Shown: piece by piece, positions 44,741-47,700 of the stretch
How the letters are laid out: every line of letters begins with the position of its first letter
Position numbering within the stretch: the stretch's first letter is position 1
DNA from: an uncultured Gemmatimonadales bacterium
Lineage (GTDB): Bacteria > Gemmatimonadota > Gemmatimonadetes > Longimicrobiales > RSA9
Reading direction: 5' to 3'
Length of the DNA stretch: 64,000 bases
Assembly (NCBI GenBank): GCA_963798845.1
Contig: CAWCUS010000001.1
Location: 480,001 to 544,000, forward strand
Translations under genes and position numbers: made by a program
Notes under the pieces: generated by a model
Databases searched by the model: none
What the model saw: only the letters and a program-made list of their open reading frames with translations
Told to the model about the DNA's origin: nothing

Positions 44741-47700
44741 TCAGTCCGCGAAGCGCTCCTGGAGGCTGCGCACCTCCCGCTTGCGGCGCGTGAGGGCGAT
44801 GACCGCGTCGGCGGCGGCGTTGGCGGCGGACATCGTGGTACAGTACGGGATCTTGTACGCGATGGCGGTGCGGCGCATCGCGTAGTCGTCGTACTGGGAC
44901 TTCTTCCCGAACGGGGTGTTGATGAGGAGCTGGACCTCGCCGCTGATCATCCCGTCGGCGATGTCCGGCCGACCCTCCCCCACCTTGAAGATCGGGGTGG
45001 CCGGGATGCCGCGGGCGCGGAGGTAGCGGGCCGTGCCGGCGGTCGCCCGGATGTCGAAGCCGAGCTCGTGGAAGCGCCGGACGATGGGCGTCACCGTGGG
45101 CTTGTCGTTGTCGTTGACGGTGACCACGATCGTGCCGTCGGTCGGGAGCGAGCCTCCGGCCGCGACCTGTGCCTTGGCGAACGCCATCCCGAAAGACGAG
45201 TCGAAGCCCATCACTTCGCCGGTGGAGCGCATCTCGGGGCCGAGGAGGATGTCCACGTTGAACTTGTCGAACGGGAACACCGCCTCCTTGACGGCGACTG
45301 CGGCGGGTGCGGGCTCGGACGCCGGATCGAGGCCGGCACCGGCGAGGGTGCTGCCGGCCATGATGGAAGAGGCGATGCGGGCGAACGGGACACCGGTCGC
45401 CTTCGCGACGAAGGGAATGGTGCGCGAAGCCCGGGGGTTGACCTCGAGGACGTAGACGATTCCGTCGCGCGCGGCGAACTGGACGTTGATGAGGCCGACC
45501 ACGCCGAGCTCCCGGGCGAACTGTCGCGCCAGCCGCTTCATCTCGGCCACCTCGGCGTCCGAGAGGAGGTAGGGCGGGAGCACGCAGGCGGAGTCGCCGG
45601 AGTGAACGCCGGCGTCCTCGATGTGCTGCATGACGCCCGCGATGACCACGTCGGTGCCGTCGCAGACGGCGTCCACGTCGGCCTCGAACGCATCCTCGAG
45701 GAAGCGGTCGATCAGGACGGGGTGGTCGTGGCTGGCGCGGACGGCGTGCTCGAAGTAGTGGCGCAGGGAGTCCTCGTCGTAGACGATCTCCATGGCGCGG
45801 CCACCGAGGACGTAGGAGGGGCGGACGAGGACCGGGTAGCCCACCTCCACGGCCACTTCCACGGCGCGGGCGATGCTGGTGGCGATGCCGCTGGCGGGCG
45901 TGACGGCGCCGATGTCGCGGCAGAGCCCGGCGAAGCGATCGCGGTCCTCCGCGCGATCGATGGCGTCCACGGACGTGCCCAGGATCGGCACGCCCAGCTC
46001 GGCGAGCGGCTCGGCCAGCTTGAGCGGCGTCTGCCCTCCCAGCTGCACGATCACCCCCTCCGGCTTCTCCCGGTCCACGATCTCGAGCACGTCCTCCAGC
46101 GTGAGCGGCTCGAAGTAGAGGCGGTCGCTGATGTCGAAGTCGGTGGAGACGGTCTCGGGGTTCGAGTTGATCATGATGGTCTCAAACCCGTCGTCGCGGA
46201 GCGCCAGCGCGGCCTGGACGCAGCAGTAGTCGAACTCGATCCCCTGCCCGATCCGGTTCGGTCCGCTCCCGAGGATCACGATCTTCCGGCCGTCACCGGG
46301 CTCGGCCTCGGACTCGCTCTCGTACGCCGAATACAGGTACGGTGTGGCGGCCGGGAACTCGCCCGCGCACGTGTCCACCATCTGATAGGTGGGGCGCACG
46401 CCCAGGGACCAGCGGAGCTCGCGGACTTCCTCCTCCTTCACGCCCCGGAGGCGGGCCAGCTGCGCGTCGCTGAAGCCGAGCCGCTTCATGCGACGCAGGG
46501 CGGCGGCGTCGACGCCGGCCAGGGCTTGGTTCGCGGGCCCCCCACCCGCATCAACAGCCTTTGACACGAAGGACTCGGAGGGGTCGAAGAGGTCGAAGGA
46601 CTTCTCTCTTGGAGTTTGCCCGGGCTGTCTCTGGTCACCGGGCGGAGCACGCTCCTCGCCCTCCGGAGCTCCATCCGCTTCGGAACCCTCACCGCCGACG
46701 TCCCCGGCCGCGGCCCCGCCGTTCTTCGTTTCCTTCGAGCCCTTCGAGCCCTTCGTGTCACGGTTCTCCCCGTGGGCCGGGGCCAATGACCTCCCGAGCG
46801 ATCGCCACCATTCCTCCGCCTCCTGGAGCTCGCGCAGCTGGGCCAGGAACCATGGATCGATCCAGGTGAGCTCGTGGATCTCCTCGATCTCGAGTCCGGC
46901 CTCGAACGCGCGCTTGAGCTGGAAGGGGCGCTCGGCGGTGGGGCGGCGCAGCGCGGCGCGCAGGGTGTCCGGCCGGTCGTCGGCGAGGCCGTCGTCGCTT
47001 GGGAGCGGGGCCGCGGACCAGCCGTCCCGGTCGATCTCCAGGCCGCGCAGCCCCTTCTGCCACGCCTGCTTGAAAGTACGTCCGATGGCCATGGTCTCTC
47101 CCACGGCCTTCATCTGCACGCCCAGCGTGTTGTCGGCAGTGGGGAACTTCTCGAAGGCGAAGCGCGGGAACTTGACCACCACGTAATCGAGCACGGGCTC
47201 GAAGGATGCCGGCGTCTGCTTCGTGATGTCGTTGGGGAGCTCGTCGAGGCGGTAGCCGACGGCGAGCTTGGCGCCGATCCGGGCGATGGGGAAGCCGGTG
47301 GCCTTGGACGCCAGCGCGGACGACCGGCTCACCCGCGGGTTCATCTCCACCACGAGCAACTCGCCATCGTGCGGGCTCACTGCGAACTGGATATTGCACC
47401 CGCCCGCGTCCACGCCGATCTCACGGATGATGGCGATGGCCGCGTCCCGCATGCGCTGGTACTCCACGTCCGAGAGCGTCTGGGCCGGGGCCACGGTCAC
47501 GCTGTCGCCCGTGTGCACGCCCATGGGGTCGATGTTCTCGATCGAGCAAACGACCACCACGTTGTCCGCGGAGTCGCGCATCATCTCCAGCTCGAACTCC
47601 TTCCACCCCATCACGCTGCGGTCGATCAGGACCTCGTGCACGGGGGAGTGGTCGAGGCCGCGCTGCGCGGCCGCACGGAACTCCTCCAGGTTGTATGCGA

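Follow-up and report, generated by a model that had tools for sequence, protein, structure and literature searches.

The window analyzed here, a stretch of 64,000 nucleotides from an uncultured Gemmatimonadales bacterium, contains carB, the gene for the large subunit of carbamoyl-phosphate synthase (CPS), and within carB an in-frame insert that carries inverted arrays of a short repeat, hereafter called arms (Table 1). The genome holding the window (G000) comprises 4.26 Mb in 6 contigs with 70% G+C. It was compared with another genome of the same genus (G001) and with further genomes, likewise designated by G-numbers, loci being designated by L-numbers. The CarB protein scored above the cut-offs of PRK05294 and TIGR01369, and all four domains and the CPS fold were present. 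A genome search gave a single carB match in G000, and carA was found elsewhere in the genome. The sources of close CarB homologues label them as Longimicrobiales or Gemmatimonadota.

Table 1. Features of the carB insert and of the related intergenic copy in the window (positions are those of the window).
Feature	Position	Strand	Basis or remark
carB, carbamoyl-phosphate synthase large subunit, 1166 residues	44741..48241	-	Sole copy found in genome
In-frame insert of about 90-92 residues within the oligomerisation domain; disorder predicted	46523..46792	-	Alignment, translation, model
Element core of 213 bp (71 codons), including the AAC lead at either end; mRNA strand forms a hairpin	46553..46765		Sequence, RNA folding
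5' arm in mRNA: AAC lead and TGACAC, then four units of the CGAAG type at 9-9-9 spacing; missing in G001	46721..46765	-	
3' arm in mRNA, translated on coding strand; 37/39 nt identical in G001	46553..46601	+	
Interior, 119 bp, unique in genome, unrelated to interiors of other copies	46602..46720	-	
Intergenic copy of the same arm family	4700..4983		Arms 4719-4754 / 4930-4965, spacing 9-8-9
Gene without Pfam match, on one side of the intergenic copy	3920-4627	-	
Metallo-beta-lactamase-fold gene, on the other side of the intergenic copy	5038-5772	+	

As an initial annotation of the window had claimed, the 270 bp of the insert form 90 codons without a stop in the carB frame, and each arm translates into the 13 residues that it gave. 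Its estimate of about 90 added residues was about right, the net gain being 92 residues (a segment of 132 residues, as compared with 40 in most of the kin, with approximate junctions). When aligned with Escherichia coli CarB (1bxr), the insert replaced the 2-residue link between residues 476 and 479, in agreement with the proposed position in the oligomerisation domain, which spans residues 401-552 of the E. coli protein according to a published account (PMC6245113). In an AlphaFold2 model with a template-modelling score of 0.83 against 1bxr_A, the predicted local distance difference test score (pLDDT) was 25-30 (all values below 50) over residues 485-570, between helices above 90; the model was built from 77 sequences, of which few covered the insert, and low confidence there is partly expected. 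The structure prediction called for by the initial annotation thus gave a disordered loop between confident helices, and the element would be translated into a disordered segment of CarB.

A repeat search placed the inverted arms at 46562-46601 and 46721-46760 (40 nt, 80% complementary), with unit spacing 9-9-9 in both. Inverted arms had been reported to bound a core at 46562-46766; they were indeed found, but the core running from TGACAC to GTGTCA ends at 46760 and not at 46766. The 213-bp core gave an RNA fold with z = -2.9, equalled by 2 of 200 shuffles, as compared with only -1.3 for a 312-nt stretch around the insert. No Rfam match was obtained at E <= 1 between 46300 and 47000.

The arms belong to a family that is dispersed in the genome. 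Fourteen TGACAC-led arms were found in G000, and a strict three-unit pattern occurred 13 times, as compared with no occurrence in the reversed genome or in any of 5 shuffles, so that the predicted further copies exist beyond chance. Arm pairs were located upstream of tyrS, at 4719-4965, inside carB, and after rpoC, single arms after rfbC and inside a gene for an M14 peptidase, and four further arms at C6:1352484-1353696 (genes around the arms were called in this analysis). Three of the 14 arms are coding, which bears out the idea that one repeat family occupies both intergenic DNA and protein loops. The copy at 4700-4983 was found at the same site in G001; its arms are 36 nt long and 94% complementary, and its RNA fold reached z = -8.8. 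The match reported between this copy and the carB insert was confirmed for the exact blocks of 16 bp (46562 and 4719) and 17 bp (46750 and 4729, reverse), but it is confined to the arms, since the comparison of the two interiors yielded a shuffle p of 0.055. More generally, only the orthologous pair aligned throughout among 78 pairwise comparisons of the interiors of 13 paired copies, apart from one short patch elsewhere. These unrelated interiors rule out the model of a miniature transposable element of the inverted-repeat type (MITE) with a common interior.

The difference in spacing between the carB copy (9-9-9) and both arms of the intergenic copy (9-8-9), noted in the initial annotation, extends to the whole genome. 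All 3 coding arms of G000 are in frame and spaced 9-9-9, whereas an 8 occurs in each of the 11 other arms (p = 0.003 when counted by arm and 0.036 by locus). However, 9-9-9 spacing was also seen in one arm of G001, which lies at an apparent junction between genes (L090). When the exact 19-mer of the arm was looked for across 185,579 species genomes, 6 stretches were found, as compared with about 4.3 expected by chance; one, in a Gemmatimonadales genome, was a true cassette of the GxxExxY type described below, and the other five had neither a GxxExxY motif nor a second arm; close genomes may be absent from the set scanned. The 19-mer was found in 0 viral contigs.

Several individual copies deserve mention. 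The lone arm of the M14 peptidase gene (L005, G000:C5:363093-363128) is in frame, and among 16 loci read at this loop, G001, G078, G080, and G082 had arms of the same or other types, while most others had a short loop. An arm without the TGACAC lead but with 9-bp spacing lies in frame in a gene for a formate-dehydrogenase-beta-like Fe-S protein (L264, G000:C6:1873), and a different arm type was found at this site in G001. The pair at G000:C2:702671-702854 lies between genes named rpoC and rpsL by sequence appearance; a transposase-like insertion takes its place in G001 (L273). At G000:C2:777889, the stop codon of rfbC is the TGA of the single arm.

Two inward-facing arms at C6:1353192-1353696 enclose a gene of the GxxExxY family (PF13366 PDDEXK_3, TIGR04256), of which the carB element holds no part. 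The G001 orthologue is intact (TIGR04256, E = 3e-41) with identical arms, and the three closest relatives among those fetched (81, 78, and 71% identity, from two other genera and one Gemmatimonadales genome) had TGACACG-type arms; L147, L146, and L161 form a clade with 100% support and a single unit type. The arms are thus the terminal repeats flanking this clade of GxxExxY genes, and the carB copy lacks the gene. PF13366 was found in 48 of the 73 genomes of the family. From 113 matched GxxExxY loci, 101 had enough flank for an arm test: inverted flanks scored above all 100 shuffles at 74 of them (27 for the direct-orientation control), and at 68 the partner flank of the locus itself surpassed 95% of the flanks from other loci. 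On the GxxExxY protein tree, unit type changed 12 times, as compared with a shuffled mean of 24 (0/200 shuffles; 53 loci with a callable unit). As kin share labels, this clustering is co-inheritance and not proof of recognition. The model of the GxxExxY protein (pLDDT 92.6) had a PD-(D/E)XK fold with invariant E34, D74, E84, and K86. No solved relative was found by sequence or by Foldseek at E <= 0.001, and the best VIA-align match (Z 8.0, root-mean-square deviation 3.2, 99 residues aligned) was to a generic restriction-endonuclease fold.

The region around this cassette (L001, G000:C6:1350187-1353985) also contains a WYL/PafC gene and a DUF4160-DUF2442 pair, the latter bracketed by further arms. 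It is 97.9% identical to G001, as compared with about 70-91% at the other sites compared, which suggests a recent transfer.

Comparison with G001 showed that the insert predates the species. The G001 CarB has the 3' arm and flanks as in G000 but lacks 45 codons including the 5' arm (a segment of 87 residues, as compared with 132), and the nearest other CarB proteins have segments of 42 and 46 residues. Between the two genomes, changes fell in third positions in 325 of 420 cases in the CarB core and in 10 of 26 cases in the non-arm insert (p = 5e-5). As changes in the core are mostly third-position and those in the non-arm insert are even, the enzyme is conserved, under purifying selection, while the filler drifts like neutral sequence. 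Conservation was higher in the arms than in the interiors. The carB arm was identical at 37 of 39 nt and the rest of the shared insert at 79 of 105 (p = 0.008), with 12 of 13 residues of the 3' arm kept at the protein level, and over the three elements common to both genomes, 168 of 181 arm positions and 309 of 390 interior positions were identical (p = 3e-5).

The initial annotation had missed that the arms are repeats of the GxxExxY cassette, and also that, in the kin, different repeat families occupy the same CarB loop. Among the 73 genomes of the same family that were searched, 66 gave a CarB match, and in 21 of these the loop segment had at least 55 residues instead of the usual 40 (20 of the 37 loops read, which were chosen for split matches, plus G020; one genome was cut at a contig end, and the remaining matches were unbroken). 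In contrast, outgroup CarB proteins (matches in 157 genomes that represent 11 other families of the phylum) had at most 17 extra residues among the full-length rows listed, which leave out 16 matches as well as a few that were split or partial; one of these rows is G236, and no claim depends on it alone. Inserts of at least 10 residues were present at this loop in 39 of 119 CarB proteins and in at most 2 at any other site, with a query that favored loop inserts. The loop is thus a family-specific hot spot tolerant of long inserts. GxxExxY-type arms were found in the CarB loops of G005, G080, G083, G046, and G020, and hexamer arrays in those of G008, G019, G052, and G041. As only 4 of the 21 distinct inserts of at least 50 residues had an inverted repeat above all 60 codon shuffles, many are single arms or decayed. 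Among 17 sets of cassette flanks, the best match of 7 of 16 inserts was, alone or tied, the GxxExxY or four-helix-bundle set of the same genome, and for the G019 insert the flanks of its own cassette came second. The insert of a genome tends to be a repeat of that genome: the hexamer arm of G008 matched 330 times in its own genome and never in 4 others, and the G046 arm 6 times in G046 and never in the other genomes compared.

These observations make it fairly probable, in our opinion, that the carB insert is a gene-less (non-autonomous) derivative of the GxxExxY cassette, presumably mobilized by the nuclease and kept as it is in frame and harmless. This small cassette consists of a GxxExxY gene, for a nuclease of the PD-(D/E)XK fold, between two inward-facing arrays of 8-9-bp units. 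The nuclease may recognize the arm units, and its cutting would allow arm pairs or single arms to be copied to new sites, by a transposase-like or a break-and-repair route. One copy of an arm pair would have entered the CarB loop in the ancestor of the genus, and selection on CarB would have retained only a form with a length that is a multiple of three and with 9-bp arm spacing. The insert would survive because its length and spacing preserve the frame, and the element, once transcribed, would be translated as a disordered surface loop with little effect on the enzyme. Splicing of the element from the mRNA was set aside because the frame and the 9-bp spacing are maintained.

Several results weigh against this derivation. 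The proposed alignment with orthologs gave the segment of about 40 residues in most of the kin but no target duplication at carB, where the longest direct match across the core flanks was 5 bp; likewise, 8 G001 sites compared with G000 showed ragged junctions and no clean filled and empty pair, although age may have erased a duplication. The unrelated interiors are unlike those of a classic internally deleted transposon. The C6 cassette gene is split by a frameshift in the G000 assembly, and 25 of the 73 genomes of the family gave no GxxExxY match. In the analysis of residue-to-base covariation, the top columns followed clades and were confounded with the tree. No CarB with an in-frame GxxExxY gene was seen among 120 CarB matches or the 20 long GxxExxY proteins listed, which is weak evidence. 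For 8 of the 16 inserts, the flanks of the cassette of the same genome were not the top match or none were on hand, and the G005 arm pattern had only 2 matches. Finally, in four runs of public sequencing reads only short carB pieces of other organisms were found, none spanning the insert.

At one orthologous junction between two genes that appear, by sequence, to act in methionine synthesis, four-helix-bundle (PF05635) cassettes were found in several genomes at L105, L306, L307, L308, and L310 (and L313), each with a different arm repeat. Turnover in place was considered: insertions at fixed sites (the CarB loop, the M14-peptidase loop, and the methionine-gene junction) would be old, and their arms would be repeatedly overwritten or re-colonized by the cassette active in the lineage, with concerted change of arms at orthologous sites. 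As would be expected, orthologous sites have different arms in different genomes, whereas the arms of any one genome agree; in G008, G052, and G019, the carB loop shares its repeat with the four-helix-bundle cassette at the shared junction, and the M14-loop arm of G082 equals its GxxExxY arm. Arms also outlast interiors, even the lone arm of G001. On a FastTree tree of 116 loop-free CarB cores (5 of 121 listed were excluded as short or without the anchor motif, the query's duplicate was dropped too, and 5 genome rows were added), all GxxExxY-type CarB inserts fell within one clade of 36 rows with 97% support; for this type, one old insertion followed by losses and arm turnover could also account for the inserts. 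However, the 27 long loops as a whole require 16 changes on this tree, 13 of them forced by well-supported branches, and sister pairs with and without an insert exist (P0004/P0015, G005/P0041). In addition, the private changes of the carB arm are shared by G000 and G001, so that it was not recently converted, and separate insertions are a simpler source of arms from two unrelated cargo families. We thus regard turnover in place as an unlikely account of the carB insert. A broader proposition, that GxxExxY nucleases, and in parallel the four-helix-bundle cassette proteins, drive an undescribed class of selfish elements that write and overwrite their short-unit arms at fixed sites, so that loops of core enzymes such as CarB change, from one lineage to the next, with the resident repeat, is possible but doubtful; if true, core enzymes would thereby acquire new protein sequence continually and without a recombinase.

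The element was also compared with known systems. The initial annotation had likened it to the Rickettsia palindromic elements (RPE), which are palindromes of 100-200 bp found both in intergenic regions and in frame in conserved enzymes, with a near-neutral effect proposed for the copy in gmk (Ogata et al. 2000, 2002, as summarized in PMC2229807 and PMC10969869). The likeness does not extend to the build: the members of an RPE family are alike over their full length and encode a conserved peptide (PMC10969869), whereas here only arms of 36-45 bp made of 8-9-bp units recur, each interior is unique, and the same arms also enclose a gene for a candidate cognate enzyme. Closer in several respects are the systems formed by repetitive extragenic palindromes (REP), their paired forms (REPIN), and REP-associated tyrosine transposases (RAYT), together with REPtrons and TIRtrons. 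These consist of inverted doublets with a variable spacer that form hairpins, a specific enzyme gene is flanked by the same repeats, some copies lie in frame in genes, and termini can provide the stop codon of a neighbor, as does the TGA after rfbC (PMC3116915, PMC3733652). Greater conservation of arms than of spacer is a further shared feature, measured here for the present elements. In contrast, the gene between the present arms is a PD-(D/E)XK gene (PF13366/TIGR04256) and not a Y1/HUH RAYT, a RAYT elsewhere in the genome not having been searched; the arms are direct arrays of short units and not self-palindromic REPs with GTAG/CGTC tags; and the copy number is low, with 14 arms. In the way it works, the carB element thus resembles both RPE and intragenic REPINs, yet it falls outside both definitions, because it has no shared interior, no RAYT between its arms, and no target duplication.

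These comparisons bear on another alternative, in which an ordinary MITE or REPIN would be moved in trans by an unrelated insertion sequence (IS) or RAYT transposase, with the GxxExxY gene as mere cargo. The small size, hairpin, and in-frame fusion do recall bacterial MITEs such as Correia, ERIC, and RUP, described in PMC2229807 as gene-less elements (below about 250 bp) with terminal inverted repeats and fusions to open reading frames, and GxxExxY, listed as of unknown function (PMC3424549), is not known to act on DNA. Here, however, there are no TA termini, no A+T richness, no target duplication found, and no common interior. A BLAST search of the insert against its own genome gave other arms only and no matching IS, no IS library having been searched. 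Moreover, arm type tracks the GxxExxY tree, and inverted arms surround most of the GxxExxY genes examined. We consider mobilization by an unrelated transposase improbable.

A benefit to the host, by mRNA stability or pausing or by an altered CPS oligomerisation through a docking peptide (for example FDLFD), would agree with the conservation of the 3' arm and with its site, since in E. coli it is through this domain that dimers assemble into tetramers (PMC6245113). It nevertheless appears very unlikely: most of the kin have no insert, the fillers show no sequence relationship to one another, a second arm for pairing is missing in G001, and the same report describes oligomerisation as without effect on regulation. 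An assembly artifact, which the initial annotation had named as a possible refutation and which fits with our finding no raw reads of the organism (the best of 24 public runs listed contained 0.12 of the words searched), is hardly credible and is largely refuted for the 3' half of the insert, as the independent genome of the congener shares the arm and flanks, with substitutions, and the frame is open.

The derivation from a GxxExxY cassette, which we favor, would link an in-frame copy to a specific and widespread nuclease family of unknown function; palindromes in frame in enzymes are known, but what moves them mostly is not. The arm is a direct candidate substrate, and the CarB loop would be a natural reporter, since within one bacterial family no fewer than two unrelated families of cassettes have filled it many times. 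Should the nuclease act on the arms, it would represent a new class of enzyme for the spread of repeats, beside RAYT and DDE transposases. The data point to a poorly described kind of selfish DNA that adds residues to core enzymes. As the initial annotation had supposed, the repeat family appears undescribed: no title or abstract on repeats flanking GxxExxY genes or on such CarB inserts was found in the literature searched, most subscription journals being outside its coverage.

Two other loci of G000 were observed. A second, intact GxxExxY gene (L102, G000:C6:1344950-1345297) has a related arm type and nested hairpins, and a four-helix-bundle gene (L107, G000:C1:734064-734264) lies between inverted arrays of a 23-24-bp unit. 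In the window, the region directly downstream of carB (41630-44691, opposite strand) encodes a PadR regulator and then a MacB/FtsX-type permease, and is ordinary.
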